In this document: positions 5,720 to 53,718 of the stretch, piece after piece
Layout of the letters: each line of letters starts with the position of its first letter
How positions within the stretch are numbered: the stretch's first letter is position 1
Translations under genes and position numbers: made by a program
Notes under the pieces: generated by a model
Told to the model about the DNA's origin: nothing
Database searches by the model: none
What the model saw: only the letters and a program-made list of their open reading frames with translations
Origin: Planctomycetia bacterium
Lineage (GTDB): Bacteria; Planctomycetota; JAJSAM01; JAJVHW01
Direction: 5' to 3'
Length of the DNA: 64,000 nt
Assembly: GCA_031404455.1 (NCBI GenBank)
Contig: JANNHP010000312.1
Coordinates: 25,780-89,779 of the forward strand

Positions 5720-5756
5720 GGGAGTGACCTCCGGAACTGTGGGCCTGGCACGCGTC

Positions 5757-7283
5757 TCACGCCGGAGCGCGGCCGCCGGGCCGCGGCGTCCTGGCACACG
5801 CCTCGTCGATGCTCCTGAGCAGCCGGTCCTCGGTGGCGCGGTGGACCCGCCGGATCTGCTCGACGAGCTCCAGCGCCTCCGCGTAGTCGGCGATCTGGCT
5901 CTCGATGACGCGGATCGCGGCCGCGGGCACGCCGTCGAGCATCGCGGGGCGCCCCTTGTCGTCGAGGTAGATCAGCGTCGAGGCGCCCGACGCGACGTCG
6001 CCGGTCACGCTGGCCGAGCTCGCGGCGGTCGACGCGCGCACGAGTCGTCCCGAGAGCAGCGGTCCCGCGGCGAGCTGCCGGATCCTCGCGTCGATCGCGT
6101 CGGTCCCCGACATCGGCGCGGCGGGCTGCGCGGTGATCGGCGCGCCGTCGGGCGCCTCGACGAGGATCCCCGCCGTCGTCGGCGCGTCGGTCTGCGGCGG
6201 GCGGGCGCGCACGTCCGCGCTCGCCGTCGTCACCTCGGGTCCCATCTCGCCCGTGATGTCGCCGTCCGCCGTGGCGGGCTCGGCGGACGCTCCCCCGTCG
6301 GGCGGGAGCGCGGGCACGAGCGGCGCGACCTCGGGCGGCGGGAGCGGGTCCCCGGAGATCTCGAGGACGGTCGCGACCGATGGGGACCCTGACGACCAGC
6401 GGCGCTGGAACGCATCGAGCGCGCGCGCGTCCGGCGCGACCGCGGCGGCGCCGCGGAAGCCGATGCTGTCGGCGCGACGGTAGCCGTCGGCCGGCGCGAG
6501 GATGAACCCGAGGTCGGCCGCGGAGAGCGGACGGTGGAACACGAAGAGCGACGGTCCGGGCGCGCTCGCGTGCCTCACGAACAGCGCGCCGTCCAAGTCC
6601 TCAACGTCGAGCCGGCGAGTGAGGATGTGCATCCACCCCGCGGCCTCGGCCTCCGGATCGGTGGCGTGGACGAGCCGCATGCGCAGCGCGAACTCCGGCA
6701 GCTCGGCCGCCCCGCGCAGCGCATCGGCGTATCGCTGGAGCTCCTGCAGGTGCAGGCCGAACGGAGCGGCGTCGTCGCGCCGCAGCAGCGCCCCGTGCGC
6801 GCGGTCGACGAACGCGTGCCAAACCGCGTCGGCGTCGAGAAGCGCCGGCGCCGGCACGTCGAACTTGGCGTACTGCTCGCGGATGCTCTTGAGCCGCGCC
6901 GCTTGCGCGCGAATCTCCCGGATGCCCTGCCACACCGCTGCGGCCGCGATCAGCTTGCGCGGTCCGTGCGGCTCGAGCTGCGCCTCGGGGTACGACGCGA
7001 AGATCGCGAAGGGGAACCGGCGCCCCGCCGCGTCGCTGCTCGGCCACATCGCGCCGACGAGTGCGCGTCTCGTCCCGGGCGGCCGCCACGCGAACGCGAT
7101 CGTCTGATCGGCGGCGACCACGGCGTCGGGGGGCATCGCGCTCGTGCCGTCGGCGAGCCAGCCGGTGAACGCCTGCGCCTCGGCGCCCTCGGCGTTCAGG
7201 CTGACGAAGTCGCCGTAGGTCGGCAGCTTGCCGAAGCACCCGAACCGTATCTCTGGCATGCGCTGCGAGCCGAAGAGGCGCAT
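5757..7283 (-). CDS. tagF: T6SS-associated TagF/ImpM family protein with ~300 aa C-terminal extension of unknown function
   Basis: 508 aa. N-terminal TagF signature (FGCFGKLPTYGDFVS, about 200 aa). Low-complexity Pro/Ala/Thr linker, then a C-terminal ~80 aa domain. No PP2C phosphatase motifs. Confidence 0.7.
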   Translation of the reverse strand: MRLFGSQRMPEIRFGCFGKLPTYGDFVSLNAEGAEAQAFTGWLADGTSAMPPDAVVAADQTIAFAWRPPGTRRALVGAMWPSSDAAGRRFPFAIFASYPEAQLEPHGPRKLIAAAAVWQGIREIRAQAARLKSIREQYAKFDVPAPALLDADAVWHAFVDRAHGALLRRDDAAPFGLHLQELQRYADALRGAAELPEFALRMRLVHATDPEAEAAGWMHILTRRLDVEDLDGALFVRHASAPGPSLFVFHRPLSAADLGFILAPADGYRRADSIGFRGAAAVAPDARALDAFQRRWSSGSPSVATVLEISGDPLPPPEVAPLVPALPPDGGASAEPATADGDITGEMGPEVTTASADVRARPPQTDAPTTAGILVEAPDGAPITAQPAAPMSGTDAIDARIRQLAAGPLLSGRLVRASTAASSASVTGDVASGASTLIYLDDKGRPAMLDGVPAAAIRVIESQIADYAEALELVEQIRRVHRATEDRLLRSIDEACARTPRPGGRAPA

Positions 7284-7324
7284 CGTCTAGTCCTCGCTCC
7301 GCGGACGGCGGGATGACTTCTGCG

Positions 7325-10300: not shown

Positions 10301-11389
10301 GCTCGTGACGTAGAAGCCCCGGTAGAGCGGCGTCTCCTGGTAGACGTTCGGCTCGAAGAGGCGAGCCATCATGCGCCCGAAGGGTTCGCCGAGTGCTGCG
10401 AGCTCGTCGGGGAATCCGAACGCCGCGGGGCGATCGCGCAGCTTCGCGGCACCGACCATGAGCGGCCTGAGTTCGCGCAGCTTGTGGATCAGGTCCGTCC
10501 AGCGCCGTTCGAAGAGCGACTGGTTGAACCGCGCGCCCTCGTCCTGCTCCACCGTCCAGCCCATCATCTGCTGGCGAGTGGCGGCGTCCGCGTTGCCGAA
10601 GAACTCCACGAACCCGCCGACGAGGTCGACCTTCGTCAGCACGATCCACACGGGGAAGTTCACGCCGAGGTGGTCGATGAGCTCGTCGAGCCGCGCGCGG
10701 ATGCGGCGCGCCTCCATCTCCTGCTCGGCGTCGCTGCGCTCGATGATGTCCGCGGCGGGGATGGCCACGATCACGCCGTTGATCGGCGCGGCCGTGCGGT
10801 GGCGGCGCACGAGGTCGAGGAACTGCGCCCATTCGTCCGCGTGCTCGTCGGACATGTAGCGCCCGGCGGTGTCGAGGAACACGCCGACGTTCGAGAACCA
10901 CCAGTCGCAGTTGCGCGTGCCCTGCAGGCCCTTGATCGCCGCGTCGCCGACCGGAAAATCGATTCCCGACTGGCGCAGGAGCGTGCTCTTGCCGCTCGCC
11001 GGCGCGCCCATGATCACGTACCACGGCAGCATCGCGAGCGCGCGGCTGCCGCCGCCGCCGACGGCAGTGCCCTTCAGCTTCCCGACGCTCTCCTTCCAGT
11101 TCTTGCGCAGCGCCTCGATCTCGCCCTTCTGGTCGTAGCGGCCGGTGCCCGACGCGAGGCTGTCCTCGAGCCGGCCCGCTTTCATGCGGCGGCGCATCCA
11201 TCCGGCGAGGAGCACGCCGAGGACCACGAGCAGCGCGACGACGAAGACGACGACGGTCCAGAAGACGCACCGGGCGGGCGGCAGGCCGACGGCGTTCGTG
11301 ATCCCGTACGCGATCCCGCCGAGGAGCAGCGGCACGATGAGCAGCGCGAGCCGCGGCAGGAGTTCGCGGAACTTGCCCGGCGCGCTCAC
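7325..11389 (-). CDS. tssM: T6SS membrane subunit TssM/IcmF
   Basis: 1354 aa. N-terminal TM helices, Walker A GAPASGKST. IcmF-like size and position between tssL and tagF. Confidence 0.9.
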   Translation of the reverse strand: MSAPGKFRELLPRLALLIVPLLLGGIAYGITNAVGLPPARCVFWTVVVFVVALLVVLGVLLAGWMRRRMKAGRLEDSLASGTGRYDQKGEIEALRKNWKESVGKLKGTAVGGGGSRALAMLPWYVIMGAPASGKSTLLRQSGIDFPVGDAAIKGLQGTRNCDWWFSNVGVFLDTAGRYMSDEHADEWAQFLDLVRRHRTAAPINGVIVAIPAADIIERSDAEQEMEARRIRARLDELIDHLGVNFPVWIVLTKVDLVGGFVEFFGNADAATRQQMMGWTVEQDEGARFNQSLFERRWTDLIHKLRELRPLMVGAAKLRDRPAAFGFPDELAALGEPFGRMMARLFEPNVYQETPLYRGFYVTSATQQGTPLQRAASRVRQLLGAPAVDADAQGVLIKNAYFVKDLMRERIVLDHGMTWTTQHEIERGKLKRLGMNLTASSLGVFGFLAVLAAGTCARHDMEAVEASLRDSRKADESVLARCEGLFAQQRQATFGVWKNLGLSLPLPLQKEMADREAGLYRTEIVGALLESRRKAIETADVTGAGGLAPLVAAYRDYLVTASALKAIAAAKTAPPAATKSPPPEPPKEGAAPPDPNDLPPGVLSPDEMAALTARAEELVAAGILPKAGTDTPERKIARLLSVAWRNGGIDETAAKAMESVDAAFDARVADYLRRVRAALDSRSAISAGTSAQIDSRRTAFLKECAHADLLLQSANVPKEKLRRELEAIAATLATEPAPAGPGPAASADLSILGSVAESLKALADAKVRTDAQLAAIEGYAAVRQYAQAEADRVKSGAAAPQAEASGRMLTALDTLAKATAELLAEGPTSPAERRTWQVTIGMSEATIALDATFRSKQGPWAQTVVQQLLPLVEGSTAETLQRHPVIRLGEALRLERMLEEFVTDPDGFASYAQRIETARRPPPGIADLDKDLAQLAAPLDLGAKNRLVSEPLLKAIEARVADSFGVVVTTAESQWSQRIRAETADTGSWRSCIDAWADPAGAIGRLAALVTQNWGEDRVSRFDADTAGDSGAAAIWRAKLAKPIARYRAFVAGVASGSRAADELRKCAGRDVSEASLAEFATKLGRSAASPAWRQPGAVDRLPEDGPFGDAKAALVAALAAGEEDLVTRLRDWFNRNWSLERQRIEAALKSPSPESTSSASQAMARMRGAFVVFFGDSLADTPGRRLELPPEFVGRFEQAAATLGPGAFDEITVTIECVAVPTSQSDKGFPLVEVEYKQQGKAPATEKWLPNAAKQLSFTFAPNKGEYFTIRMRNERTNDSKTFRAWTTPDCVVAALTSGLGTSSDALDWEGTGEFKGDHAKFRLVTANADRIRRLNAAPEDTRLPETCVRILPR

Positions 11390-12132
11390 TTCTTCTCACC
11401 GCTCTCAGGCGCGGACCGCTCGGCCGCGAGCATCTCGCCGATCCTCGTGCCCTGAGCGCTCCAGAGGACGAACCAGAGCCCGACCGCCAGGGCGGCGGAG
11501 AGCGGGATCGGCCACCACCAGAACCAGCCCTTGCCGAGGATGCGTCCCTTCGGCGCGTCGCGGTACGCCTCGCTCCAGACGCGGCGGCGCGCGGCCTCGG
11601 GGCCCTGCGGCCAGAGCAGCGCGACGATTCCGTTCGCGAGGGCGTCGAGCTCGCCGGGGTTCGCACTGCGGTACCTGCCCCGGAACCCGAGCCGGAGACA
11701 TGTGTAGAAGACCTCGAGCGCTCCGAGCACTTGCTCACGCAGCGCGGGATCCTGGACCCCCGCGAGCTGTTGCCGCAGACGGTTGACGCGCTCGAAGAAC
11801 TCCTGGCCCGCGAACGACGTGTTGAAGTGCCGGAGCTCCAGGAGGAACCGGCTCCACTGCTGCGCGTGGTCCCAGTCGCTGTGCAGGCCGAGGTCGTCGG
11901 CGAGCGCCACGACCGCGTACTTCGCCTGCGTGTAGATGTTCCAGTCGAGTCCCGACGACCGCGCCGACATGTCGGCGCCGGCGAGGAGTTCCTCGAGCGT
12001 CCGGTGGAACTGCGCCGGCTGCAGCCGGGCGCGCGTCGATTCGCTGTGGAACGCGGCGATCGCGAGGAAGAAGCCTCGGAAGCAGCCGGTCAGGGCCGCC
12101 CGGGAGGATCCCGCCTCAGCGGCCGAAGACAA
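11386..12132 (-). CDS. tssL: T6SS membrane subunit TssL (DotU/ImpK family)
   Basis: 248 aa. DotU-like cytoplasmic domain plus C-terminal TM helix (WWPIPLSAALAVGLWFVLW). Upstream of tssM with a 4-nt overlap. Confidence 0.8.
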   Translation of the reverse strand: MSSAAEAGSSRAALTGCFRGFFLAIAAFHSESTRARLQPAQFHRTLEELLAGADMSARSSGLDWNIYTQAKYAVVALADDLGLHSDWDHAQQWSRFLLELRHFNTSFAGQEFFERVNRLRQQLAGVQDPALREQVLGALEVFYTCLRLGFRGRYRSANPGELDALANGIVALLWPQGPEAARRRVWSEAYRDAPKGRILGKGWFWWWPIPLSAALAVGLWFVLWSAQGTRIGEMLAAERSAPESGEKK

Positions 12133-13540
12133 CGTACGCCTCCATGCCGAGGTCGGGTGCCGCGCCGCCGGGGACGAGCCCCTCGGTCGCGAAGTGGATG
12201 ACGAGCGTGCGCTCCGAGATCACCGCGCGCCACTCGTCCTGCGCCTCCGGACGCGCGGACGCGTCGTTCTGGAGCCGGTAGTAGACGGCGCCGCTGCGGC
12301 TCGGCAGCTCGCGGGGCTTCGGGCACGGCGCGACGGGCACGCCGTACTTCCTCTGCGCGACGATGTTCGCGATGCGCGTGGCCGCGCCGACCTTCACGTG
12401 TCCGCTGCGGTAGAAGTCGCGCTCCGCGCCGGGCGGGTCGGGGCTCGCGAACGCGAGGTAGACCTGGTTGCGGGCGTTCAGGAGTGCCGGGTCGAGTCCC
12501 GAGGCACCGACGGCGAGTCCGCCGATGCCGAGGTCGCCGCGGGTCAGGGGGACCCGGCGGAAGTTCGCGGCGAGCTGGTCGGCGCGGAGCAGCGCGAGCA
12601 AGGGGCGCGCGACCAGGTCGAAGCACTCGCCGATGTTCGCGTGGTCGTAGATCGGGACGTTCGGCATGGAGGCGCCCGCGCAGAGCGTGGCGAACTGCCC
12701 GAGCAGGCTGCAGAGCAGGTGGTAGACGTCGTAGGGGTGCGGTCGTCCGCCGTCCGCCGCTTCGCGGAGCCAGGGCAGCGCCGCACGCAGGATCTGCAGC
12801 TTCCAGAGCTGGATCACCTCCGCCTCGGTCGCGTTGCCCGCCACCATGTCGGCGACCGACGCGCCGCCCGCGAGGTCCGCCGCCTTGCCGGCGGCCTCTC
12901 CGAAGATCTCCTTCACGAGCGCGTGGACGCCGGACGCCGCGGAGAGCCGCAGCGACGGCGGAGCCCACGCGGCGGAGAGGCGCGACGGCGGCAGGCCGAC
13001 CGCGGGCGCCACGAGCTGCGCGATCGGCACCGTCTCGAAACCGTCGGTCCGGTCGCCGTCGAAGAGCAGGCGCGCGTTCAGCCTGAGGAAGTGGACGTCC
13101 TGGAGGTTGCGGCCGGTCACGAGGTCGGCCACGGTCTCCGTCGCGCGCACGTAGCGCGGCGGATCGGTGTCGTCCTCGTGCGTCTCGCGCACGTTGGGCT
13201 CGTGGTCGCGCAGGCGCCGGGCGCCGACGTGGACCGTGAGCGGGCTCGGCGCGCCCTTCGGGATCTCGCGCGGCGCCAGCGACGCGTTGCCGCCCCCGCG
13301 CGCGTCGAACACGAGAGCCTCACCGCCCGGCAGCATCACCTCGAGCGAACGGACCTCGAAGAACCCGCGTTCGAGCTGGAGCGGGTCCACGTCGATCTCG
13401 GCGACGCCGAAGCGGTACGGCGCGGCGTAGCCGAGCTGGCGCGCGCCGAGCGCCATCGCCCCGTGGGCCTGCTGCTGCATGTGGTGCGGCAGGAGGAAGA
13501 GACCTTCCTCCCAGAGGACACCCCTCGGGATTGGACACAT
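12116..13540 (-). CDS. tssK: T6SS baseplate subunit TssK (ImpJ/VasE family)
   Basis: 474 aa. N-terminus VLWEEGLFLLPHHMQQQ matches the TssK family start. Position between tssJ and tssL. Confidence 0.85.
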   Translation of the reverse strand: MCPIPRGVLWEEGLFLLPHHMQQQAHGAMALGARQLGYAAPYRFGVAEIDVDPLQLERGFFEVRSLEVMLPGGEALVFDARGGGNASLAPREIPKGAPSPLTVHVGARRLRDHEPNVRETHEDDTDPPRYVRATETVADLVTGRNLQDVHFLRLNARLLFDGDRTDGFETVPIAQLVAPAVGLPPSRLSAAWAPPSLRLSAASGVHALVKEIFGEAAGKAADLAGGASVADMVAGNATEAEVIQLWKLQILRAALPWLREAADGGRPHPYDVYHLLCSLLGQFATLCAGASMPNVPIYDHANIGECFDLVARPLLALLRADQLAANFRRVPLTRGDLGIGGLAVGASGLDPALLNARNQVYLAFASPDPPGAERDFYRSGHVKVGAATRIANIVAQRKYGVPVAPCPKPRELPSRSGAVYYRLQNDASARPEAQDEWRAVISERTLVIHFATEGLVPGGAAPDLGMEAYVVFGR

Positions 13541-13697
13541 CGAAACCCTCCGACTCGGTCGCGTCCGCCGGGCCCGGGCCGGCGGCGAGCGAGACTATCC
13601 CGGCTCACGCCCCGGGTCTCGCTCGAAGGCCCGCGTAATCTCCCCGCGGCCAGGCCGCACAGCCGGGCCGCACAGCCGCGCCGCGCCGCCGCCCGCG

Positions 13698-14195
13698 CTA
13701 CTTCGAGGGCCCGACGTTCGTCTCGTCCATCGTGAACCGGACCGCGTGCACCGGCTTCGTCACCTTGTACTCCGGCCGGCCGCTCGCGCAGTCGATGGGG
13801 ACGATCGCGGTGCGCGTGCCGCGCGTGTAGAGCGCGATGAGGCCCACGTGCGTGTAGAGCGAATCCTCGCCGACGTCGAGAGTGCCGGAGCGCTCGGACG
13901 CGGGCTTCATCCACTCGCCGAGGTCGAAGGCCTTCCCGAGCTGCGGGAACTTCTCGGAGTTCTGCGCCGAGGCGAGGTCATCGGGGCGCTCCGACGCCAT
14001 CTTCGCGAAGAGCACCGCGTCGCGGACGGCCCAGGCCTGGAAGCGCACGTGCTGGGCGCCCTGACCCGAGTTGTTCAATCTGTCTGTGGAGGCGACGCTC
14101 ACCTCGACCCGGTCGCCCTTCGCGACGCAGGTGCTGCCGCACCCCGCGAGCGCGAGGATCGCGAGCGACCCGGACAGCGCGACGTGAAGCCTCAT
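13698..14195 (-). CDS. tssJ: T6SS outer-membrane lipoprotein TssJ (SciN-like)
   Basis: 165 aa. Signal peptide with lipobox LALAGC. Size and position typical of TssJ. Start overlaps the stop of the upstream gene (ATGA). Confidence 0.6.
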   Translation of the reverse strand: MRLHVALSGSLAILALAGCGSTCVAKGDRVEVSVASTDRLNNSGQGAQHVRFQAWAVRDAVLFAKMASERPDDLASAQNSEKFPQLGKAFDLGEWMKPASERSGTLDVGEDSLYTHVGLIALYTRGTRTAIVPIDCASGRPEYKVTKPVHAVRFTMDETNVGPSK

Positions 14196-17077
14196 CGTGG
14201 TCTCCTCCCCTCGCGCGCGCGCCGCTTCATGAGCTCGCGCCGCAGGTGTTCCTCGAACGACGGATCGTAGAAGCGCGCGATCAGCTCGCCGAGACCGGCG
14301 TCCATCCGCTGCAGGATATCCTGGACCTTGATCTTCTGCGCCGACGACAGCTCGAGCTCCTTCTGGAACGCAACGCCGAGCGTGAGCAGCAGGCGCCGCG
14401 ACCCGTCCTTCGTCGAGCGGCCGTGCGCCTCGACGAGGAGTCCGATCGTCGAGCCGAGCGACGTCTTCATCGCGCGCAGCGTCTCGACGCACTCCGCGAT
14501 GCGCGCGGCGGAGTCGGGGTCGCCGCGGCCCGCGGACGCGAGCGCTTGCCGCACCATGCGCTGCAGGTTGCGCTGCTCGGAGGCGAACTCCTGGCCGCCG
14601 AGCTCCGCGACGGCGTCGCCTAGGGTGCCGAGCGTCTCGAGTCCCTCCGCGAGGAGCGTGCGGACGAGCACCGCGGCGGGGTCGTCCGGCGAGAGCGGGA
14701 CCGCGGCCGAGCTGCCGGGTTCCACGAGCGATTCCGTGAGGGCGCTCCAGAGACCCTCGTCCGCCGCCGGCGGCGGAGGAGGAGGCGCGCGCTCGACGCG
14801 CGCTCTCGCCATCGAGAGGGCGTCGACTTCCGACTGGAGGCGCGCGATCCGCGCCGCGCCGGAGCGCAGCGATTCCTCCAGCTCGCGGATCCGCGCGTCG
14901 CGCTGGTCTGCGCCCGCCGGCTCGGCGGGCTTCGTTGCGACGTGCGCCGGAGCGCTCGGGCGGCGCTCCGCCGGGATTCGCAGGCGGAGTTCCTGTACGC
15001 GCGTCAGGAGACGTTCGACCGGACGCGCGAACCGCGCGGGGTCCGGGTCCGCGTGCAGGCTGTCCGCGAAACCGACGCCGCCGCGCGTGAGGCACGCGGC
15101 TGCGATCGCGAGCACCTCGGCCCAGATCTCGGGCGGGATGCGGCCCTCGCCGGAGGGCCGCTCGCCGGGGTAGAAGCAGACGTTCTTCGGCGAGAGGAAG
15201 CCGTCGAGCGGCGGCGTGCTCGCGAGCTTCGCGAAGACCTCGACGAGGTCGTCCCACGCGGTGCGGCCGTCGTGGTCGTGCACCGCGCGGCAGAGCGACG
15301 CCGCCGTCGGCACCACGTCCGCGGCGATCCGCTGCACCGACTGCGACGCGTTGTCCAGCATCGCCCGGAGCAGAAGCATCCCGAGCGAGTGCAGGTCGTA
15401 GTACGCGCCGTACGTTCGGTACACGGTCGCCGTGCCGAGGAGCGCCGTCTTGCCGGTCGCTGCGCGCAGATCGAGGAGCTTGCCGGAATCGAGACGCTGC
15501 GGGAACGCCCTGAGCGCGAGCGGGCCGGGCGCGTGACGCTCGGTGTCGCGGCGGCACCAGAGGACGCTGCGCTCCCAGCCGGGCGAGCTGATCTCGATTC
15601 GCACCCGGTCCGTGAGGTCGGCCTTCGACTCCACCCCGGCGAGGCCCTCGACGTCGAGTTCGAACTCCGTCGTGCCGGCCGCCTCGTCGGTCCACACGCG
15701 TCCGACGGAGATCCTCACCGGCGCCGTTCGTGCCCATCGGAACCCGCCCTGGTGCACGTCCGGACCGTCGGGCGGCGCCGTGCCGCGGGGCTCGGCGGCG
15801 CGCGCGACATCGGGGTGCGCGTACGGCTCGACGGCCTCCGGGGGGACGAGCCAGATGACCGGCCCGGGCGGCGGAGACATGACGTCGTCGAGCGCCGGCG
15901 CGCGCAGTCCGCCGCGGATGGCGACGTCGTACTGCTCGCCGGGAGCGACGAAGAGGCGGTGCGAGACGATCGCTCCGGGCGAGAGGCCGAGGTGCGGACG
16001 GCCGTGCGTGCGGTGATACCCGGCGACCGCCTGCACGACGGCCTCGAAGAGCTTCAGCTTCTCGGCGAGCGCGTCGAGCGGCCGGGCCGCCTCCGCGCGG
16101 CCGACGAGCTCCGTCTCGAGCCGTTCGCGCGACTGGCGCCGTCCCGGGAGCGTCCAGTTGGCGACGTGGCGCGCTCGGAACGCGGCCCACGGCGCGCCGC
16201 CGAGGATGTCGCACTGCTCGCCGAAGTCGGCGACGTCCTCGCGGTGCGCGATCGCGCGGAACGGGAGGAACGAGATCGGGGCGAGCCGCTTCGGCGCGAG
16301 CGGCGGACCCGGCGGCGCCGCAGTCGAACCGCGCGCGGGCCGCGAGTAGCACTTCGGGACCTCGGGACATCCGATGCAGGGAAAGCTCTCCGCGAGCCGC
16401 GAGACCGAGGCGTCGCCCGCGGCCTCGCGGTCGAAGATCCGGCCGAGGTCCTTCGCGAACCGCTCGAACGTTCCGACGTCGGCGAGTGCGCCGCGGACGG
16501 GCCGCGGATCCGCCGAGTAGAACTGCGCCGACGCGCCGCGACCCTGCCGCGGGTCGTAGAGGAACCGTTGCGTCGTCGTGGTCCACGCGGGAAGCCTCGC
16601 CGCAAGGAGCGTGTCCGCGTCGCGGCACTCCGCGAGCTCTCCGCCCGCGGAGTGCGGGGACGGTGGACGGAAGACGACGCCGCGCTCGCGGCAGACGAGG
16701 AGCGGCGCGTACTCCTCGTAGCCGAGATCCGGGACCTCCCCCGATTCCGCGTGCGCCGCCGCCGCGATGGCGCGCCGCCGCCACATCGTCTCGATCGCGG
16801 CGTTCCCGGCGTGCGGTCCCCACGTGGCCGGGAGGCGCGCGGGATCGACGACGTCGCGCTGGACCTCGAGCAGGTACGGCGCTCCGCTCGACGAACGGGC
16901 GCGGAAAGTGCGCGCGAGGGCGTCCTCGTGCACGGGGAGCGCATCGCCGGGAGACCCGGTCGGCGGCGGCGCGCTGCCGTCGCGCGACCAGGCCAGATCG
17001 CGGACGTCGGCGTCGCGGCGCCCGCCAGGGACGTCGCGCATCTCGGACTCGCCGATGATCTGCGTTCGTTCGTCCAT
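14192..17077 (-). CDS. Large T6SS-cluster protein with degenerate Ser/Thr protein-kinase-like region (pseudokinase candidate) and C-terminal coiled coil
   Basis: 961 aa. Start taken at internal Met (MDERTQIIGE); the ORF tool merges it into a 1389-aa frame. A central region resembles a kinase catalytic core but with substitutions: YHRTHGRPHLGLSPGAIV where HRDLKPxNIL is expected, DVAIRGG where DFG is expected, and later DLHSLGMLLL resembling subdomain IX. Sits between the FHA gene and tssJ, where TagE/PpkA sits in imp-type clusters. Confidence 0.5.
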   Translation of the reverse strand: MDERTQIIGESEMRDVPGGRRDADVRDLAWSRDGSAPPPTGSPGDALPVHEDALARTFRARSSSGAPYLLEVQRDVVDPARLPATWGPHAGNAAIETMWRRRAIAAAAHAESGEVPDLGYEEYAPLLVCRERGVVFRPPSPHSAGGELAECRDADTLLAARLPAWTTTTQRFLYDPRQGRGASAQFYSADPRPVRGALADVGTFERFAKDLGRIFDREAAGDASVSRLAESFPCIGCPEVPKCYSRPARGSTAAPPGPPLAPKRLAPISFLPFRAIAHREDVADFGEQCDILGGAPWAAFRARHVANWTLPGRRQSRERLETELVGRAEAARPLDALAEKLKLFEAVVQAVAGYHRTHGRPHLGLSPGAIVSHRLFVAPGEQYDVAIRGGLRAPALDDVMSPPPGPVIWLVPPEAVEPYAHPDVARAAEPRGTAPPDGPDVHQGGFRWARTAPVRISVGRVWTDEAAGTTEFELDVEGLAGVESKADLTDRVRIEISSPGWERSVLWCRRDTERHAPGPLALRAFPQRLDSGKLLDLRAATGKTALLGTATVYRTYGAYYDLHSLGMLLLRAMLDNASQSVQRIAADVVPTAASLCRAVHDHDGRTAWDDLVEVFAKLASTPPLDGFLSPKNVCFYPGERPSGEGRIPPEIWAEVLAIAAACLTRGGVGFADSLHADPDPARFARPVERLLTRVQELRLRIPAERRPSAPAHVATKPAEPAGADQRDARIRELEESLRSGAARIARLQSEVDALSMARARVERAPPPPPPAADEGLWSALTESLVEPGSSAAVPLSPDDPAAVLVRTLLAEGLETLGTLGDAVAELGGQEFASEQRNLQRMVRQALASAGRGDPDSAARIAECVETLRAMKTSLGSTIGLLVEAHGRSTKDGSRRLLLTLGVAFQKELELSSAQKIKVQDILQRMDAGLGELIARFYDPSFEEHLRRELMKRRAREGRRPR

Positions 17078-17082
17078 GCGGA

Positions 17083-18543
17083 TCAGCCCCGCGCGCTCGC
17101 GACGACGAGCAGCACGATTCCCGCGGTGATCGCGACGATCATGCTGACGACGCCGGTCACGAGCCACCCCTTGTGCGACGAGCCGCGCCGGGCGACGACG
17201 CGCGGCGACGGTCCGGCACCCGGCGCGGGCGATTCGCGCCGGGGTGCGACGGCCGGCTCGTGCGGGATGGCGGGAGGCGGCGCCGCGGCGTAGGCCACGG
17301 GAGGCGGAGGAGGAGGAGGGACGGACGGTCCGACCGGCGGCGGGCCGGACCACGAAGGTCCCGGCGGCGCGCCGCCGGCGGGGACGTCCCACGCCGGAGG
17401 CGGAGGCGCGGGCGCGACCGGGGCGGCGGGCACGTCCCACGATGCGGGGCCCGCGGCGGCACGCGGCGCGGCGGCCGCAGCCGTCCAGTCGGTGGCCGCG
17501 GCCGGGGCCGTGTCGGACGACGCGGGACGATAGGGCGGGGGTGCGGGAGCGGGAGGAGGAGGTGCTGCCGCCGGCCTCGACCAGTCGGGCGCGGACGACT
17601 GCGCGGCGGAGTGGGCGACCTGATCCCATCGGGGCGGGTCGTCGGTCGCTGCGCGCGGACCGGGCCCTCGCTGGACCTCGGGTGACGGGGCGGGAGCGGG
17701 GGCCCAGCGAGTCTCGCGCTGAACGGGTTCCGCGTCGGCCCGCGCTCCGAACACCGACGCCGACGACGCAGGTGCCGCGGCGTCTGCCTCCGTCACGACG
17801 CGCACGTCCACCGGCCCGACGCCGACGATGTCTCCGTGGGCGAGAGGCGTCTCGCCGAAGATCGGACGCCCGTTGACCCGCAGAGGGTTGCGGGCGCCCG
17901 CGGCGCGGATGTAGATCCGCGTCCCGTCGTAGCGGGCGAGCGCGTGACGCCGCGACACCGAGCCGTTCGCCACGGTGAGGTCGCAGCCCGCCGCGCGGCC
18001 GATCACATATGCCCGCTCGAGTTCTCGCAACTCGAGCCGGCCGGTCTCCGGCGGGCACGCCACGAGCGTGGGGACGACGCGACCGGCCGGGCCGGGCTCG
18101 GCGCCGCCCGCAGGCAGGTGCGTCGGTTCCGCTCCCGCCACCTGCGTCATGAAGCTCGCGCGGGCCATCGTCATGTCGGCCGACGAATCGCGCATCGGCT
18201 CGACCTCGGGGAGGATCGTCTCCCGGCCGTACGACGCGCGGAACACGTACTCGGCGATGACGAACGTGTCGCCGTCCTGTACGCGCCGCGGCTGTCCGTG
18301 CGGGATCGCGACCCCGTTGACGAGCGTGGGCGTGAGGCTTCCCTGGTGCGTGGCGTGCCACGCACCGTGGAGGAGGTCGAGCGTCACGTGCGTCCGCGAG
18401 ATCCCGTCGCCCTCGATGAGGATGAGGGACTGCGCGCTGCGGCCGATGGTGACCGGCCCCGACTCGAACTCGAACGTGCGCGGCGAGCCGCGTCCGGCGT
18501 CGCGCGAGTTCGTCAGGTCGAGTCGCAGGTTCACGCCGCGCAT
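17083..18543 (-). CDS. fha: Tandem-FHA domain protein with Pro-rich linker and C-terminal TM helix (T6SS Fha/TagH-like)
   Basis: 486 aa. Two FHA domains (GPVTIGRSAQSLILIEGDGISRTHVTL.., and YVIGRAAGCDLTVANGSVSRRHALARYDG..VNGRPI). Long poly-Pro/Ala segment. C-terminal TM helix (LVTGVVSMIVAITAGIVLLVV). First gene of the T6SS operon. Confidence 0.8.
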   Translation of the reverse strand: MRGVNLRLDLTNSRDAGRGSPRTFEFESGPVTIGRSAQSLILIEGDGISRTHVTLDLLHGAWHATHQGSLTPTLVNGVAIPHGQPRRVQDGDTFVIAEYVFRASYGRETILPEVEPMRDSSADMTMARASFMTQVAGAEPTHLPAGGAEPGPAGRVVPTLVACPPETGRLELRELERAYVIGRAAGCDLTVANGSVSRRHALARYDGTRIYIRAAGARNPLRVNGRPIFGETPLAHGDIVGVGPVDVRVVTEADAAAPASSASVFGARADAEPVQRETRWAPAPAPSPEVQRGPGPRAATDDPPRWDQVAHSAAQSSAPDWSRPAAAPPPPAPAPPPYRPASSDTAPAAATDWTAAAAAPRAAAGPASWDVPAAPVAPAPPPPAWDVPAGGAPPGPSWSGPPPVGPSVPPPPPPPVAYAAAPPPAIPHEPAVAPRRESPAPGAGPSPRVVARRGSSHKGWLVTGVVSMIVAITAGIVLLVVASARG

Positions 18544-20520: not shown

Positions 20521-21069
20521 ATGAGGCTCGTCCGCGCCCTTGCCGTCCTCGTCGCGCTCGTCCTCGGTTCGAGCCCCGGATGGGCGCTCGGGGTCAACGG
20601 AGGCCTCGACTCCTTCGACAACGCGCTGCAGCTCGTCCGCACCAATGACACCGACCCCGCGCACCAGGCCGCGATCGACGAGGCGCGCGCGAAGCTCGCC
20701 GACCCGAAGATCACGACCGTCGAGAAGCAGGTGAAGGCGTTCGCGGCCGGGCTCGCGATCGTCGAGAAGAGCTACGGCACGCTCGACGCGTTCGCGACCG
20801 AGGGTGGATTCCTGACGTCGCAGCTCGTCGCGGGGATCGTCCTGCCCGTCTCGGTGCAGGGCGGCATGGCGCAGGGCGTGCTGCTCGAGTACCTGTCCAC
20901 CCCGCTCGCGATCGTCGGCCTCTCGAAGAAGCTCCTGAAGATCTCGAACGGGTTCGCGAAGGCGACCGACCCTGTCCAGACGCCGGACCTGAAGAAGCAG
21001 CTCAAGGGCGTCGCCAAGGCGTCGAAGCAGTTCGCGGCCTTCTACAAGCGCTACCACAAGACGAAGTAG
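20521..21069 (+). CDS. Secreted hypothetical protein
   Basis: 182 aa. N-terminal signal peptide (MRLVRALAVLVALVLGSSPGWALG), Lys-rich C-terminus. Confidence 0.55.
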   Translation: MRLVRALAVLVALVLGSSPGWALGVNGGLDSFDNALQLVRTNDTDPAHQAAIDEARAKLADPKITTVEKQVKAFAAGLAIVEKSYGTLDAFATEGGFLTSQLVAGIVLPVSVQGGMAQGVLLEYLSTPLAIVGLSKKLLKISNGFAKATDPVQTPDLKKQLKGVAKASKQFAAFYKRYHKTK

Positions 21070-21121: not shown

Positions 21122-22384
21122 GTGTACAGTCGCACGCGGACAGGACTTCTCAGGGAGGCCCGTATGGACGACTTCGACCTTCGGCTCGGCGGAGCCCGTA
21201 TCGGGAATCTGCGCAGGCGCGAACTCCTGCGGATGGCGGGACTCGCCGGCGTGAGCGTCGCGTCGGCGGCGGTGCTGGGTCGCGCGGCCGATGCCTTCGC
21301 CGCGCCCGACGCGCCGAAGGCGTCGCCGTACAAGACGAAGCACGTGATCCTCCTCGCGTTCGCCGGCGGCGTGCGCGCCCGCGAGGTCATCGGCGTGAAC
21401 TCGGCCGCGCCGAACCTCATGAAGATCGGCGAGAAGGGCTGCGTGATGCCCAACGTGAAGGCCGCGAACCTCGGCCACTACGGCGCCGCGCTCGCGATCT
21501 TCACCGGCTGTCCGGAAGCGCAGGGCATCCGCCAGAACTACCGCGGCGAGAGCCCGACGGTCTTCGAGTACCTGCGCAAGGACGCGGGGCTCCCCGCCGA
21601 CCAGGTGTGGCTCTCGACGACGGCGGGCGCCCAGACGATCAACTTCTCGTACAGCGAGCACGAGGACTACGGCGCGAAGTACGGCGCCAACCTCATCAGC
21701 ACCGACGGACTCTTCAACACCGAGTTCCGCAACCTCGTCTCGGGCTTCGGCAATGTCTCGCTGCCGACCGAGAAGGAGCAGCAGCAGGTCGCGGATCTTT
21801 CGAAGGCGCTCGATCCGAAGTTCCTGGAGGGCGTGAAGGACCGCTCGTTCGCGAACGACCCCGAGGCGGCGATGCGCATCCAGCGCTACATCCTCGAGGA
21901 GCTGAAGGGCGACACGGCCGACCTCACGGGCCCCGGTGCCGGCGACGCGAAGGCGATCCGCGTCGCGCGCAATCTCCTGCGCCTCTTCAAGCCGAAGGTC
22001 ATCGCGATCGTGCTGCAGAACGCCGACGTCGCGCACGGGAGCTACAACTCGTACGTGGAGGTCATCCGCCGCAACGACCAGGAGGTCGGGGCACTCTGGC
22101 AGTCGGTGCAGCAGGACACGGAGCTCCGGGACTCGACGTCGATGTTCGTCCTGCCCGAGTTCGGCCGCGACCACAACCTGAACGAGCGCAACGGACTCGA
22201 CCACGGCGACGGCTCCGAGGACCTGCAGAAGGTGTTCTGCATCGCCGCGGGCCCGGACTTCAAGCAGGGCAAGACCCTCCAGGCCGGCGCGAACTCGTTC
22301 GACGTCTGCCCCACCGTGGCGGAACTGCTCGGCGCGAAGACGCCGGAAGCGCGGGGCAAGTCGTTGAAGCAGCTCATGGCGTAG
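21122..22384 (+). CDS. DUF1501 family protein (sulfatase-like fold) with twin-arginine signal
   Basis: 420 aa. Tat motif RRRELLRMAGLAGVSVASAA. DUF1501 C-terminal signature (VLPEFGRDHNLNERNGLDHGDG). Confidence 0.75.
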   Translation: MYSRTRTGLLREARMDDFDLRLGGARIGNLRRRELLRMAGLAGVSVASAAVLGRAADAFAAPDAPKASPYKTKHVILLAFAGGVRAREVIGVNSAAPNLMKIGEKGCVMPNVKAANLGHYGAALAIFTGCPEAQGIRQNYRGESPTVFEYLRKDAGLPADQVWLSTTAGAQTINFSYSEHEDYGAKYGANLISTDGLFNTEFRNLVSGFGNVSLPTEKEQQQVADLSKALDPKFLEGVKDRSFANDPEAAMRIQRYILEELKGDTADLTGPGAGDAKAIRVARNLLRLFKPKVIAIVLQNADVAHGSYNSYVEVIRRNDQEVGALWQSVQQDTELRDSTSMFVLPEFGRDHNLNERNGLDHGDGSEDLQKVFCIAAGPDFKQGKTLQAGANSFDVCPTVAELLGAKTPEARGKSLKQLMA

Positions 22385-22387
22385 CCG

Positions 22388-25324
22388 GTGCGGGCACGAC
22401 CCGCTCTCGCGGCCCTCGTCGTCGCGCTCGCCGCGGCTTTCGCGGCGCCGCGCGGGGGACAGGCGGAGGGCGACCGTCCCGCCGCGGTGAACGGTTCCTG
22501 CGCGAACTGCCACACGGGCATCGAGGAGATGCACCCGTGGGCGCCGGTGAGCTGCGTGCAGTGCCACGGCGGCAACTCCGACGCGGCGACGAAGGAGACG
22601 GCGCACGTCACGCAGGGACGCCGCGCTCCCGGCGACGAACGCGTCCTTGCTCCGGGCTTCGAGCCGGAAGCCTCGCGGTTCCTCGACCCGGGAAGTCTCC
22701 GCGCCGCGCCGCAGAGCTGCGGACCGTGCCACGAACGCGCGGTCTACGACGTGACGCACTCTCTCCACGCGACGACTTCGGGTCACCTCGGCGACGGTCT
22801 CTACGAGAACGGCGTCGTGCCCGATCGCCATCCGCGTGTCTCCATCTTCGACGTGAAGGACGAACTCCCCGCCGCTACGCCACGCCCGAAGGAGGCGCTG
22901 CCCTCGCTGAAGCAGATCGAGGCGTTCCAGGCCGCCGGCGACCGCGAGAAGGCCTCGACTCACTTCACCGACCTGCCTCGCAAGACGTGCATGCAGTGTC
23001 ATCTCTGGTCGCACGGACGCGCGGTCCGCGGTCGCGCCGGGATGGACGGCGACTACCGCGGCGAGGGCTGCGGCGCCTGCCACACGCCCTACGCCGACGA
23101 CGGTCTCTCGACGTCGCGCGATCCCACGATCGACAAGTACGAGCCGGGCCATCCGCGCCGTCACGAGATGGTGAAGTTCCCCACCACCGACACGTGCACG
23201 CGGTGCCACTACGGCGATGCGTCGATCGGCCTCTCGTTCCGCGGGCTCGCGCAGCCGGTGCCCGGAATGCCGCAGACGCCCGACGCACCGGGGCTCCACC
23301 GGAAGCGGATGAACGGCGTCTACTACATCGCGGATCCCGCCGCGACGCCCGCCGACGTCCACCACCAGCGCGGGATGCACTGCGTCGACTGCCACACGCG
23401 CAACGACGCGATGGGCGACGGGTTCCTCTACTCGCGGATGGAGGACGCCGTCGAGATATCGTGCGAGGGGTGCCACGGCTCCGCCGGCGAGTACGCGAGC
23501 AGCGTGACGCGCCGCGGCACGCGGCTCACGAACCTCGTGAGGAAGGGCACGGCGGAGTCGCCGGAGTACTTCCTCGAGGGGCGCATCGACGGGAAGCTCC
23601 ACCGCGTGAAGCAGTCGCGCGACGTCGTGCGCCCCGGCAGCGCCGACTTCAACGCGCAGGCCGCTCTCGCGATGACGGGCGACCACGCGCGGCTCGAGTG
23701 CTACGCGTGCCACAGCGGGTGGAACCCGAACTTCTTCGGCTTCCACTTCGACAGGAACGAGCAGTTCACGCAGCTCGACCTCATCTCGGCGCAGCGCACG
23801 CAGGGACGCGCCACGACGCAGGAGAAGGTGTTCTCCACGTTCAAGAGCTTCTACCTCGGCTGGAACAGCCACGGCCGGATCGCGCCGTACATGGTCGGCT
23901 TCTCCACGATGGCGACCGCGCACGACAAGGACGGCGGACTGCTCCTCGACCAGGCGCTCCCCGTGACGCGCGCCGGTCTCTCGGGCATGACGATGATCCA
24001 TCACCAGACGCACACGACGACGGCGCGCGCGCGTCTCTGCGTGGAATGCCACCGCGCGCCGGCGACGTTCGGACGCGGCTCCGTGAACTTCCGGCTGATG
24101 CGGAACTTCATCGTCACGGGCGGCGACACCGGCGTGCGCACGCTGTCGCTCGACAGAAAGTCGCCGGGCGACACGTCGCTGCTCTCGGCACTGCCCGTCG
24201 CGTCGGTCCGCGCGCTGGCGCTCGTCTCGAACCGTGTGACGGGCCGCAGCGAGTGGGCGTACGCCGCGTCGGCGACGGGATCACTCGCGGCGTGCGACGT
24301 GTCGAGTCCGGGCTTCCCGCGGATCGCGTCGTCGCTCGACGCCGCCGCGAAGGACCCGCAGGCGCTCGTCGCCGCGGCGTCGCGTCTCTACCTCGCCGAC
24401 GGCGAGAACGGCGTGACGATCTTCGACATCTCCATTGCGTCGCGCCCGAAGCAGATCGCTCGCGTGCCGGACGTGCCCGCGTACGGACTCTGGCTCGACG
24501 GGACGACGCTCCACGTCGCCGCCGGCAACCGCGGACTCGCCGCGATCGACGTGCGCGACGCAAAGACGCCGCGCATCGTCCATCCCGGCTTCGACCTGAA
24601 CGGCGAGGACACGGCGCCGACGTTCGTCTCGCGCATCTGCGTGCTCTTCCAGTACAGCCGTCCGAACCAGAACGTGCTCGAGGCGCCGCGCACGACGCCG
24701 CGCGCGCTCGCCGTCATCGGCACGCGCGACGCGTCGGTGTGGCTCGTCGACGTGACGGAGCCCGCGATGCCGAGCGTGCTCGCGCCGCTCGGCGGGGCGC
24801 GCGCGGTGCGCGTGCCGGTGACCGACGTGGCGATCGCGACGCTCTACGAGCTCGGAAGCGAGGGCGGCGCCATCGCGACCGACGAGCGCGACTGCGCCTT
24901 CGTGCTGTTCGAGCAGGGCGGGCCGCAACTCCTCGTCCTCGACGTGACCGATCCCGTGCAGTCGAAGTTCAGAGGCGTCGTCTCGCTGCGCGCGCAGACG
25001 CGCGCGATCCGGGTCGCGCGCGTCTACAACCCGCCATTCCTCCAGACGTTCGTAGTGGCCGTCGGGGCACTCGGTACGCAGATCGTGGACGTGTCGAAGC
25101 CCGACACCCCGACCGTCGTCGCCAGCCTCGCCACGCCGCTCAACGCGTTCGCGATCGAGCTCGAGGAGTTCCCGCTCGACCGCACGGTCGACGCGGACGG
25201 GCGGCCGATCATGGACGTGAGCCACGAGGGAGCCCGCTGGCTCGACCAGCAGGAACTCGAACGCGTTCTTCATGTACCATCGTTCTGGTCGATGCCGGCG
25301 ACCCCCGGAGGGACGAAGCGATGA
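22388..25324 (+). CDS. Decaheme c-type cytochrome fused to LVIVD-repeat beta-propeller
   Basis: 978 aa. Signal peptide. Ten CxxCH motifs (CANCH, CVQCH, CGPCH, CMQCH, CGACH, CTRCH, CVDCH, CEGCH, CYACH, CVECH). C-terminal ~380 aa with LVIVD-type repeats (LYLADGENGVTIFDIS, LHVAAGNRGLAAIDV). 4 nt after the DUF1501 stop. Confidence 0.8.
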   Translation: MRARPALAALVVALAAAFAAPRGGQAEGDRPAAVNGSCANCHTGIEEMHPWAPVSCVQCHGGNSDAATKETAHVTQGRRAPGDERVLAPGFEPEASRFLDPGSLRAAPQSCGPCHERAVYDVTHSLHATTSGHLGDGLYENGVVPDRHPRVSIFDVKDELPAATPRPKEALPSLKQIEAFQAAGDREKASTHFTDLPRKTCMQCHLWSHGRAVRGRAGMDGDYRGEGCGACHTPYADDGLSTSRDPTIDKYEPGHPRRHEMVKFPTTDTCTRCHYGDASIGLSFRGLAQPVPGMPQTPDAPGLHRKRMNGVYYIADPAATPADVHHQRGMHCVDCHTRNDAMGDGFLYSRMEDAVEISCEGCHGSAGEYASSVTRRGTRLTNLVRKGTAESPEYFLEGRIDGKLHRVKQSRDVVRPGSADFNAQAALAMTGDHARLECYACHSGWNPNFFGFHFDRNEQFTQLDLISAQRTQGRATTQEKVFSTFKSFYLGWNSHGRIAPYMVGFSTMATAHDKDGGLLLDQALPVTRAGLSGMTMIHHQTHTTTARARLCVECHRAPATFGRGSVNFRLMRNFIVTGGDTGVRTLSLDRKSPGDTSLLSALPVASVRALALVSNRVTGRSEWAYAASATGSLAACDVSSPGFPRIASSLDAAAKDPQALVAAASRLYLADGENGVTIFDISIASRPKQIARVPDVPAYGLWLDGTTLHVAAGNRGLAAIDVRDAKTPRIVHPGFDLNGEDTAPTFVSRICVLFQYSRPNQNVLEAPRTTPRALAVIGTRDASVWLVDVTEPAMPSVLAPLGGARAVRVPVTDVAIATLYELGSEGGAIATDERDCAFVLFEQGGPQLLVLDVTDPVQSKFRGVVSLRAQTRAIRVARVYNPPFLQTFVVAVGALGTQIVDVSKPDTPTVVASLATPLNAFAIELEEFPLDRTVDADGRPIMDVSHEGARWLDQQELERVLHVPSFWSMPATPGGTKR

Positions 25325-26157
25325 CGAAGCGGATGACTGCGATCCTCGTGGGACTCCTCGCGGCGAGCGCCGCGGCGGGCGACGAGCCGAAGATGGACGG
25401 CAAGCCCGCGGCGGACACGCGCACGAAGGCGGAGATCCTCGCCGACGCACAGAAGCAGTTCGGGAAGGCCGACGCCAACGGCGACGGCTGCCTGAAGGGC
25501 GACGAGATCGTGAAGGGCTGGGTCGAACGCTACGACCTCGACGCCGACGGGAGGGTCAGCCGAACCGAGTTCCTCGACATCTCGACGCGCCCGCCGAAGC
25601 TGCGCCACCCGTCGCCGATGCGCGACACCGTCGCGCGCGCGCGCCTGAACATGACGACGTTCGACAAGAACAAGGACGGGATCATCCAGAAGGACGAGTA
25701 CCCGGGCGACCAGGTGAAGTTCCGCAAGTTCGACCGTAACAAGGACGGCGCGCTCTCGCTCGCGGAGACGATGACGATGGCGGACGAGGAGATCGCCGAC
25801 ATCCGCGACAAGATGAAGAGCCCGAACCGCTACGAGTTCCTCGTGCTCTTCGACGTCGATGGCGACAACAGCGTCTCGCAGGACGAGTACGACGGCCCCT
25901 CGGCCGAGTTCAAGCGCTACGACAAGGACTCGGACGGCGTCGTGACGTACGACGAGCTCTATCCGGAGCGCATGATGGACCGGATGAAGAAGTACGAGGA
26001 CATGGGCCCGAAGCCCGAGGACCTTTCGATCTTGGAGACGATGGACAAGGACAAGGACGGCAAGGTCACGCGCTCCGAGTTCAAGGGCACCGACGACGCG
26101 TGGAAGCGCCTCGACAGGAACAGCGACGGAGTCGTCACGATCGCCGACGCGCGCTGA
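25321..26157 (+). CDS. Secreted multi-EF-hand calcium-binding protein
   Basis: 278 aa. Signal peptide. Eight DxDxDG-type loops (DANGDGCL, DLDADGRVS, DKNKDGII, DRNKDGAL, DVDGDNSVS, DKDSDGVVT, DKDKDGKVT, DRNSDGVVT). Start overlaps the cytochrome stop (ATGA). Confidence 0.8.
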   Translation: MTKRMTAILVGLLAASAAAGDEPKMDGKPAADTRTKAEILADAQKQFGKADANGDGCLKGDEIVKGWVERYDLDADGRVSRTEFLDISTRPPKLRHPSPMRDTVARARLNMTTFDKNKDGIIQKDEYPGDQVKFRKFDRNKDGALSLAETMTMADEEIADIRDKMKSPNRYEFLVLFDVDGDNSVSQDEYDGPSAEFKRYDKDSDGVVTYDELYPERMMDRMKKYEDMGPKPEDLSILETMDKDKDGKVTRSEFKGTDDAWKRLDRNSDGVVTIADAR

Positions 26158-27075
26158 TCAGCGGATCCCGAACATCGCCTTGAACACGTGCCCCGCGACC
26201 GCGGGGTTCTCCCTGAGGCGGCGCGTGCTGTAGCCGTACCACGCCTCGCCGTACGGCACGTAGATGCGCACGCGGTGGCCTTTCGCGAGGATCTCGTCGC
26301 GGAGCCACTCGCGCACACCGAGCAGCATCTGGAACTCGTAGCGCTCCTTCGGCGTCGCGAGTTCCGCGAGGAGCGACATCGCGTGCTCGACGAGCACCTC
26401 GTCGTGCGTCGCGATCGCGACCCTGCCGCTGCCGCGCAGCAGCGCCTCGAGGTTTCGCCGGTAGCTCGCGCGGATCTCCTCGCGGTCGTGGTACGTCACC
26501 TCCGGCGCCTCGCGGTAGATGCCCTTGCAGAGACGCACGGGCACGCCCTCGGCCGCGAGCTTCGCGACGTCGGCGTCGGTGCGGCGCATGTACGCCTGGA
26601 TCACGCAGCCGACGGGGAGCCCCTGCGATCGAAGTGACCGCACGAGCGCCAGCGTCCGGTCCGTGTACGGCGAGTTCTCCATGTCGATGCGCAGGAAGCC
26701 GACCTTCGCCGCGGCCTGCCGCGCGAGCACCGTGACGAGTTCGCAGCACACGGCGTCGTCGAGGCCGAGGCCGAACGCCGTGAGCTTCACCGAGACGTTG
26801 GCGCGCAGTCCCTCGCCGGCGATCGCGTCGATCATCCGGCCGTACTCCGCCGCGGTCGAGCGCGCCTCGGAGATGTCGGTGATGAACTCGCCGAGCACGT
26901 CCACCGTCGCCTCGGCGCCCTTCGCGTTCAGCTCGCGGATGACGCGAACGGCATCGGCGATCGTCTCGCCGGCGATGTAGCGGCGCGCCACGAGGCCCAC
27001 GACGAACCTCGGAGTGACGGGAAGCGCCGCGGCGACCAGCCGGTCGAGGACTGACATCGGACGAGGGATAGTCAT
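26158..27075 (-). CDS. Proline dehydrogenase family protein
   Basis: 305 aa from internal Met (MTIPRPMSV). ProDH family similarity over its length (VDVLGEFITD.., RIDMENSPYTDRT, IQAYMRRTDAD). Confidence 0.8.
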   Translation of the reverse strand: MTIPRPMSVLDRLVAAALPVTPRFVVGLVARRYIAGETIADAVRVIRELNAKGAEATVDVLGEFITDISEARSTAAEYGRMIDAIAGEGLRANVSVKLTAFGLGLDDAVCCELVTVLARQAAAKVGFLRIDMENSPYTDRTLALVRSLRSQGLPVGCVIQAYMRRTDADVAKLAAEGVPVRLCKGIYREAPEVTYHDREEIRASYRRNLEALLRGSGRVAIATHDEVLVEHAMSLLAELATPKERYEFQMLLGVREWLRDEILAKGHRVRIYVPYGEAWYGYSTRRLRENPAVAGHVFKAMFGIR

Positions 27076-46195: not shown

Positions 46196-46294
46196 GCCAC
46201 CTCGGTGCGGGCTGGAAACGACTCCTCCTCATCGTCCCGCCGCACCCCCCGGCGTTAGCCGGACGGACCGGCTCCCGCGAGCTAGCTTCCTCGC

Positions 46295-50904: not shown

Positions 50905-50957
50905 CGGCGGCCGGAGGCAGGCCCGGAACCGAGCAGCGAGGCGGCGCCCCCGAGACC

Positions 50958-53717
<2,760 letters not shown>

Positions 53718-53718
<1 letters not shown>

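Follow-up and report, generated by a model that had tools for sequence, protein, structure and literature searches.

In the 64,000-nucleotide stretch of contig JANNHP010000312.1 from a Planctomycetia bacterium analysed here (the window, numbered from its first letter), three consecutive plus-strand genes, called g1, g2 and g3 below, constitute a cassette that at least 80 uncultured Planctomycetota species share and that very probably represents one functional module. The product of g1 is a predicted twin-arginine translocation (Tat) substrate with a DUF1501 match, g2 encodes a protein with ten CxxCH heme sites followed by an LVIVD-type β-propeller, and g3 encodes a series of eight EF-hands. 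This domain content had been claimed in a first-pass annotation of the sequence, and the Pfam and NCBIfam searches agree with it. Likewise, the export proposed there for all three products is supported by predicted signals, of the Tat type for g1 and of the Sec type for g2 and g3.

The conservation of the cassette is evident from the relatives of g2. A homology search with g2 returns more than 600 relatives, mostly full-length and with 44–90% identity, which are annotated by a domain name only (LVIVD repeat, EF-hand), as hypothetical or not at all, and all those carrying an organism name come from metagenome-assembled genomes (MAGs) of Planctomycetota. For the synteny scan, one genome per GTDB species was taken, giving 187 loci, 80 of which were kept; all 80 are from MAGs, most of them labelled Planctomycetota or a subgroup and a few just "bacterium"; groundwater, Lac Pavin and lake water columns are among the source habitats. 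Among loci with enough upstream or downstream sequence, a homologue of g1, the best-conserved subunit (46–72% identity), lies directly upstream of g2 in 68 of 73, is displaced within the locus in three and is absent from it in two. On the downstream side, a plus-strand open reading frame (ORF) with at least four EF loops follows g2 directly (73 of 75 loci). Gene calls on four independent contigs agree with this order, neighbouring genes overlapping or being separated by short gaps. Found again in about 80 species, the order goes far beyond what chance would produce, and the conserved synteny in relatives on which the first-pass annotation had made its proposal depend is strongly present. The flanking ORFs of 84 loci were also clustered all against all with a filter on the G+C content of third codon positions (GC3), and no conserved family was found beyond the three genes and an upstream partner gene, which is described below.

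Some loci depart from the common arrangement. Three MAGs each contain two divergent g2 modules on separate contigs (L017/L036, L016/L037 and L033/L058), and in each pair one copy is without an adjacent part: g1 is displaced in L037 and missing in L033, and the EF-hand ORF of L036 is too divergent for tblastn. L013 (g2 at 5001–7772) is the one locus with downstream sequence where g2 is not followed by an EF-hand ORF, and its g1 and g2 are about 750 nt apart. In L084 a g1 homologue sits between a tRNA methyltransferase gene and a 563-residue helical-repeat ORF.

The genes themselves are closely packed. The window has a G+C content of about 70%, at which long spurious ORFs are common, and the GC3 analysis picks out three consecutive plus-strand genes at 21.1–26.2 kb with a coding-type GC3 of about 0.9. 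The first, g1, occupies 21164..22384 (+) and encodes 406 residues; a GTG at 21122 would give an alternative protein of 420 residues (ORF 21122–22384), and the ATG at 21164, 6 nt after GGGAGG, is the likelier start. The whole g2 gene spans 22388–25324 (978 residues), and g3 spans 25321..26157 (+), encoding a secreted protein of 278 residues. The stop codon of g1 is separated from the start of g2 by 3 nt, and the g2 stop overlaps the g3 start by 4 nt (ATGA), with GGAGG upstream of the g3 start. Thus the 4-nt overlap proposed as a sign of an operon holds, and the spacing between g1 and g2, given earlier as 4 nt, has to be corrected. The g3 stop adjoins, with no spacer, that of a proline dehydrogenase gene in convergent orientation, and for this reason the transcription unit would end at g3. 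At this junction (26155–26160) the TGA of g3 and the TCA of the proline dehydrogenase stop, as read on the plus strand, form the palindrome TGATCA. A terminator scan shows no terminator-like hairpin between the two genes, and the Rfam and tRNA scans gave no match.

The g1 protein, read from the ATG at 21164, begins with MDDFDLRLGGARIGNLRRRELLRMAGLAG and carries a twin-arginine signal (RRRELL), the RR motif of which is invariant in 29 g1 homologues. Its score against the Pfam model DUF1501 (PF07394) is 28.4–28.6 bits, a marginal pass of the cutoff of 27, and because of this marginal match g1 is assigned to a divergent DUF1501 subfamily. DUF1501 is the top family for the homologue set, being matched by all 29 members at E ≤ 0.01 (best E 1e-8); other models matched within the set are TAT_signal (18), Phosphodiest (10) and Sulfatase (4). 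The AlphaFold model of g1 has a predicted local distance difference test score (pLDDT) of 71.5 and a disordered insert at residues 184–240. With this model, Foldseek retrieves sulfatases, NPP and LtaS-type enzymes and phosphonate monoester hydrolases at E ~1e-10 and template modelling (TM) scores of 0.45–0.5, matches that confirm an alkaline-phosphatase-superfamily fold for the predicted structure. The invariant residues of g1 are AFAGGVR (65–71), N102, G104, H105, T114, D288, H291, PEFGRD (331–336) and GLDHGD (344–349), and they suggest a preserved, non-canonical metal site. When g1 is aligned by profile with S1 sulfatases, their formylglycine Cys falls on its invariant His105 and their GDHG on PEFGR. 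An assignment of g1 to the S1 sulfatases was rejected: the C/S-x-P-x-R motif is missing, with His105 in its place, and where the N-terminal DD metal ligands would be expected the first β-strand ends in AFAGGVR, with no Asp. The first metal-ligand motif of DUF1501 proteins is GGxD, compared with GGVR in g1.

The g2 protein has a hydrophobic N-terminus, VRARPALAALVVALAAAFAAPRGGQA, which is a predicted Sec-type signal peptide of about residues 1–27 (22388..22468, +, the end coordinate being approximate). The CxxCH motifs are therefore predicted to lie in a secreted protein, as the first-pass annotation had argued. Exactly ten such motifs are present, with first cysteines at C38, C56, C111, C201, C228, C270, C332, C359, C438 and C551, and they fall in residues 35–565 (22490..24082, +). 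Pfam assigns Cytochrome_C7, Cytochrom_c3_2 and LVIVD to g2, and residues 35–565 match the NCBIfam model ExtM (NF040943) with 198 bits and E 2e-58 over model positions 19–511 of 599. All 35 aligned g2 homologues match the ExtM model as well (best E 9e-67). Among these homologues, nine of the CxxCH motifs do not vary, and the first occurs in at least 90%; outside the motifs, eleven His residues are invariant and another two almost invariant. With these conserved His residues, each of the ten hemes could have bis-His ligation. Export and conservation of the CxxCH motifs across homologues together identify g2 as a predicted multiheme cytochrome c. Most of the invariant residues of g2 lie in the heme half, and many heme-only relatives of 600–700 residues are found at 33–38% identity.

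The C-terminal part of g2 (residues 569–960; 24092..25267, +) is modelled by AlphaFold with high confidence as a seven-bladed, LVIVD/YVTN-like propeller, and it belongs to the LVIVD-repeat β-propellers (PF08309). It contains no conserved cysteine and few invariant residues, mostly glycines and aspartates of the repeat motif, and no catalytic signature was found in it. After the last blade comes a conserved acidic tail, EEFPLDRxVDxxGRPxKDISHEGARYL. The propeller may accordingly be regarded as a binding platform, not a catalytic centre.

The g3 product carries a signal peptide and matches the Pfam model EF-hand_1 at E 4e-27. Eight canonical 12-residue EF loops of the DxDxDG type start at residues 51, 72, 115, 138, 178, 201, 242 and 265 and are arranged as four closely spaced pairs, the starts within a pair being 21–23 residues apart; g3 is thus an EF-hand protein by its motifs, with predicted calcium binding. 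In five relatives (P0069, P0072, P0241, P0243 and P0244) g2 and g3 are fused into one protein whose EF-hand tail has five to eight loops. P0069 and P0072 are 80% identical, and the four fusion groups are 40–46% identical to one another. Because these groups are divergent and their linkers contain no signal peptide, the fusions are real and widespread, not frameshift artefacts. That g3 is joined to the g2 C-terminus in four or more divergent lineages argues strongly for its binding at this end of g2. The earlier proposal of a calcium sensor or buffer is not favoured by this result; g3 is more likely a structural, calcium-loaded subunit.

Another finding concerns a fourth gene in relatives. Of the 69 loci that extend far enough, 55 have a plus-strand gene immediately before g1. 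Its N-terminus is variable: in L003 it contains an FHA domain together with a transmembrane segment, elsewhere PKD domains. A single CxxCH occurs in 11 of 57 of these ORFs. The C-terminal 340 residues are conserved, and among 20 members they match PSCyt2/DUF1549 (19), DUF4214 (17), PSD1/DUF1553 (11) and DUF1800 (9). Judged by these domain matches, the upstream gene is the canonical DUF1501 partner. The first-pass annotation had taken the cytochrome to stand in place of a DUF1800 partner; since 55 of 69 relatives retain the partner upstream, the DUF1501 pair has been extended by the cytochrome and the EF-hand protein, neither of which is a replacement. A profile of the partner domain finds no match at E ≤ 10 in the 64-kb window and none in its closest clade (L002, L004–L010). 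The window therefore holds what is, by its gene content, a three-gene derivative, and its subclade, the only one without the partner at the locus, has lost it there.

Based on the results presented above, we tentatively propose, as a possibility somewhat short of probable, that g1, g2 and g3 form one periplasmic redox complex that is confined to Planctomycetota and has a division of labour among its parts. The ExtM-like decaheme domain would act as an electron wire that links the DUF1501-type site with the respiratory chain. The DUF1501-type metalloprotein g1 would provide the substrate-handling site, with its reaction coupled to the heme chain, and in most relatives it would work with the DUF1549/DUF1553/DUF1800-like partner. 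The propeller, with the calcium-loaded EF-hand subunit on its C-terminal face, would serve as a docking and assembly platform and not as a catalyst. The proposal is supported by the co-inheritance of the cassette, the export signals of all three products, the g2–g3 fusions, the invariant set of polar active-site residues in g1, the retention of ten heme sites and the homology of the heme domain to ExtM. A further argument comes from known DUF1501 pairs: most relatives have the canonical partner upstream of g1, and in PVC (Planctomycetes–Verrucomicrobia–Chlamydiae) bacteria DUF1501 genes occur beside heme-c genes (PMC5615132). On the other hand, several observations weigh against it. The first metal-ligand Asp of the superfamily is missing from g1 (GGVR occupies its place), and because of this absence and of His105 at the formylglycine position, the chemistry of g1 is not predictable. 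Long non-heme segments that are invariant, for example FFGFHFDRNE and GDASIGLxFRG, occur in the heme domain, which on this account could itself be catalytic. The clade of the window has no DUF1549-like partner at the locus. In L084 the g1 homologue (6001–7176, 52% identity) stands alone, without g2, and no cytochrome, EF-hand or partner gene occurs within 6 kb of it. Moreover, no enzyme of the alkaline phosphatase superfamily is known to have a cytochrome partner.

The invariant segments lead to one alternative, which we consider unlikely: catalysis resides in the heme domain of g2, which would be, for instance, a reductase of a soluble oxyanion such as selenite, tellurite, sulfite or nitrite, and g1 and g3 are accessories that bind or process the substrate or stabilise the enzyme. 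The non-heme segments between hemes 6 and 7 and between hemes 9 and 10 are very highly conserved, and 13 conserved extra His residues are available for ten hemes. Furthermore, the closest named family, ExtM, belongs to an operon that has been linked genetically to selenite and tellurite reduction, and weak sequence echoes of NrfA and of octaheme nitrite reductases are seen. These echoes are not significant, however (E 0.002–0.1 in the PDB, where g2 has no significant match by sequence or by profile), and ExtM itself has no demonstrated activity. There is also no CxxCK or other atypical heme motif in g2, and its invariant His residues suffice for bis-His ligation throughout.

There are two further explanations. 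The module could be a device for cell-surface or extracellular electron transfer or for adhesion, in which the propeller and the EF-hand pairs hold the decaheme cytochrome on the envelope or on a solid substrate. A propeller of the surface LVIVD/YVTN type and the dockerin-like spacing of the EF loops would fit such a role. It is nonetheless distinctly unlikely, given that no porin, outer-membrane β-barrel or secretion-system gene is conserved beside the module, that g1, g2 and g3 have no lipobox or recognisable sorting signal and that g1 is a predicted Tat substrate, as is typical of periplasmic enzymes. A conduit of the porin–cytochrome (Mtr/Pcc) type was rejected on similar grounds, no outer-membrane β-barrel or porin gene being present in the flanks of the window or conserved around the module in 84 loci. 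It is very unlikely, finally, that g1 is an ordinary calcium- or metal-dependent hydrolase of phospho- or sulfo-esters and that the cytochrome is unrelated or only regulatory, co-transcribed for other reasons. The fold of g1, its weak matches to sulfatases and NPP enzymes and the one homologue that occurs alone in L084 are in line with this explanation. It is opposed by the adjacency of g1 and g2, held in 68 of 73 loci down to 46% identity, by the lack in g1 of the CxPxR motif of sulfatases and of the first Asp among the metal ligands, and by the recurrent pairing of DUF1501 genes with heme-c proteins in PVC bacteria (PMC5615132).

The cassette has implications for DUF1501 systems in general. 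DUF1501 genes and their DUF1549/DUF1553/DUF1800 partners are among the largest uncharacterised gene-pair families of Planctomycetota and Verrucomicrobia. A stable cassette in at least 80 species is strong genomic evidence that ties DUF1501 systems to electron transfer, and it is the first explicit genomic link between these systems and a long heme wire. E. coli alkaline phosphatase oxidises phosphite. It is conceivable, albeit highly improbable, that DUF1501-type proteins as a whole are redox enzymes and not hydrolases, which might catalyse the oxidation or reduction of, for instance, a tetrahedral oxyanion of the phosphite, sulfite, selenite or arsenite type or of its ester, and which would pass electrons to c-type hemes. 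If this were true, such a coupling would be at its most explicit in the module described here, with its dedicated ten-heme wire and its docking propeller stabilised by calcium, and the very large PSCyt/DUF1549/DUF1553–DUF1501 pair families of PVC bacteria would be explained. The compact size of the cassette, three or four genes, makes it a workable target for expression, biochemistry and structure determination.

The genes flanking the module in the window are unrelated to it and encode a trpF-like isomerase, an FHA protein by type VI secretion genes, a carbamoyltransferase, an acyl-CoA dehydrogenase, a cyclophilin and the proline dehydrogenase mentioned above. Directly upstream of g1 lies g0 (20521–21069, +), an ORF of 182 residues with a signal peptide and coding-type GC3. 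It was considered as a fourth member of the module and rejected, as it has no Pfam match and no counterpart in 83 related loci. A type VI secretion region (7325–13594 and 17083–18543, −) contains genes for an IcmF/TssM-like protein of 1356 residues, a VasE/TssK-like protein of 492 residues and, nearby, a protein with two FHA domains; a 936-residue ORF between them (14192–17000, −) has no Pfam match. The FHA protein at 17083–18543 (−) was also rejected as an equivalent of the FHA-containing partner of L003, because the FHA domain alone matches and type VI secretion genes adjoin it. Further downstream, dnaA, dnaN and gyrB stand in a row (47429–53718, +), so the window probably adjoins a chromosomal replication origin; the cumulative GC skew of the window shows no sharp switch. 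Two other genes are unusual. One (43997–46228, −) encodes a GAF–HisKA–HATPase sensor kinase whose residues 78–194 match the Arf small-GTPase family at E 1.8e-5, an unusual combination, and the other (55286–58648, −) encodes a protein of 1120 residues with LptC-like and LptA/LptD_N-like segments, far longer than ordinary Lpt bridge proteins.

Comparison with known systems places the module near several of them without making it identical to any. No description of the cassette, or of multiheme–LVIVD–EF-hand systems in general, was found in the literature searched, in agreement with the first-pass annotation, which had called it not a described system; nor did this literature contain a functional study of DUF1501, DUF1549 or DUF1553. 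Kinship with the multiheme–propeller proteins of Planctomycetota that resemble the β and γ subunits of hydrazine synthase (PMC12758564) was examined and rejected, with a profile E of 0.23 and a different domain order: there, a propeller is followed by the diheme domain of γ, whereas g2 has no heme motif past its propeller. Among multi-EF-hand proteins (lanmodulin, XopAW and dockerin-type proteins), g3 shares the DxDxDG loops and the short spacing of paired loops; it differs in having eight loops and a fixed place after the cytochrome gene, to which it is often fused. Its NCBIfam scores are below threshold for both XopAW (72.6 vs 120) and LanM (40.2 vs 135; NF053806). The hallmarks of lanmodulin are a Pro at loop position 2 and an extra Asp at position 9. 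Lanthanide binding of the lanmodulin type was rejected for g3 on the basis of the 40.2 bits and of the eight loops, none of which has Pro at position 2 or the extra Asp at 9.

The closest named relative of the heme domain, ExtM (GSU2935), is an uncharacterised 12-heme cytochrome of the Geobacter extHIJKLMNOPQS cluster, located beside a Rieske/cytochrome-b (bc-type) complex (PMC5877670). The likeness extends over about 490 of the 599 model positions and includes the heme spacing. On the other hand, g2, with 198 bits, falls far short of the equivalog cutoff (800), has ten hemes where ExtM has twelve and carries the propeller in place of the C-terminal part of ExtM. The ext operon context (the porin ExtI, the rhodanese ExtH, ExtKL and the bc-like ExtOP) is likewise missing from the module, and ExtM is from Desulfobacterota, g2 from Planctomycetota. 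Hence g2 is, by its profile match, a homologue of ExtM and not an ExtM equivalog, and nothing but the name of the operon to which the ExtM family belongs connects the module with oxyanions. For an ExtM-type multiheme domain, the addition of a propeller on the C-terminal side, whether or not EF-hands follow, is an architecture not described before.

The known systems that share g1 are the pairs of DUF1501 with DUF1549/DUF1553 (PSCyt2/PSD1) or DUF1800 in Planctomycetes–Verrucomicrobia and Proteobacteria, with which g1 has in common the DUF1501 match, the Tat signal and the alkaline phosphatase fold. In PVC bacteria, genes of the DUF1501 family are known beside heme-c (PSCyt) genes, and PSCyt2-domain genes adjoin a conserved family of unknown genes whose function is not known (PMC5615132). 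In contrast to these pairs, the heme part of the present module is a separate, ten-heme, ExtM-like propeller protein, an EF-hand protein is added, and in the window no DUF1800 or DUF1549/DUF1553 partner is adjacent. The preferred reading, a periplasmic redox complex, would make the module a variant of the DUF1501-partner systems, themselves uncharacterised, of PVC bacteria.

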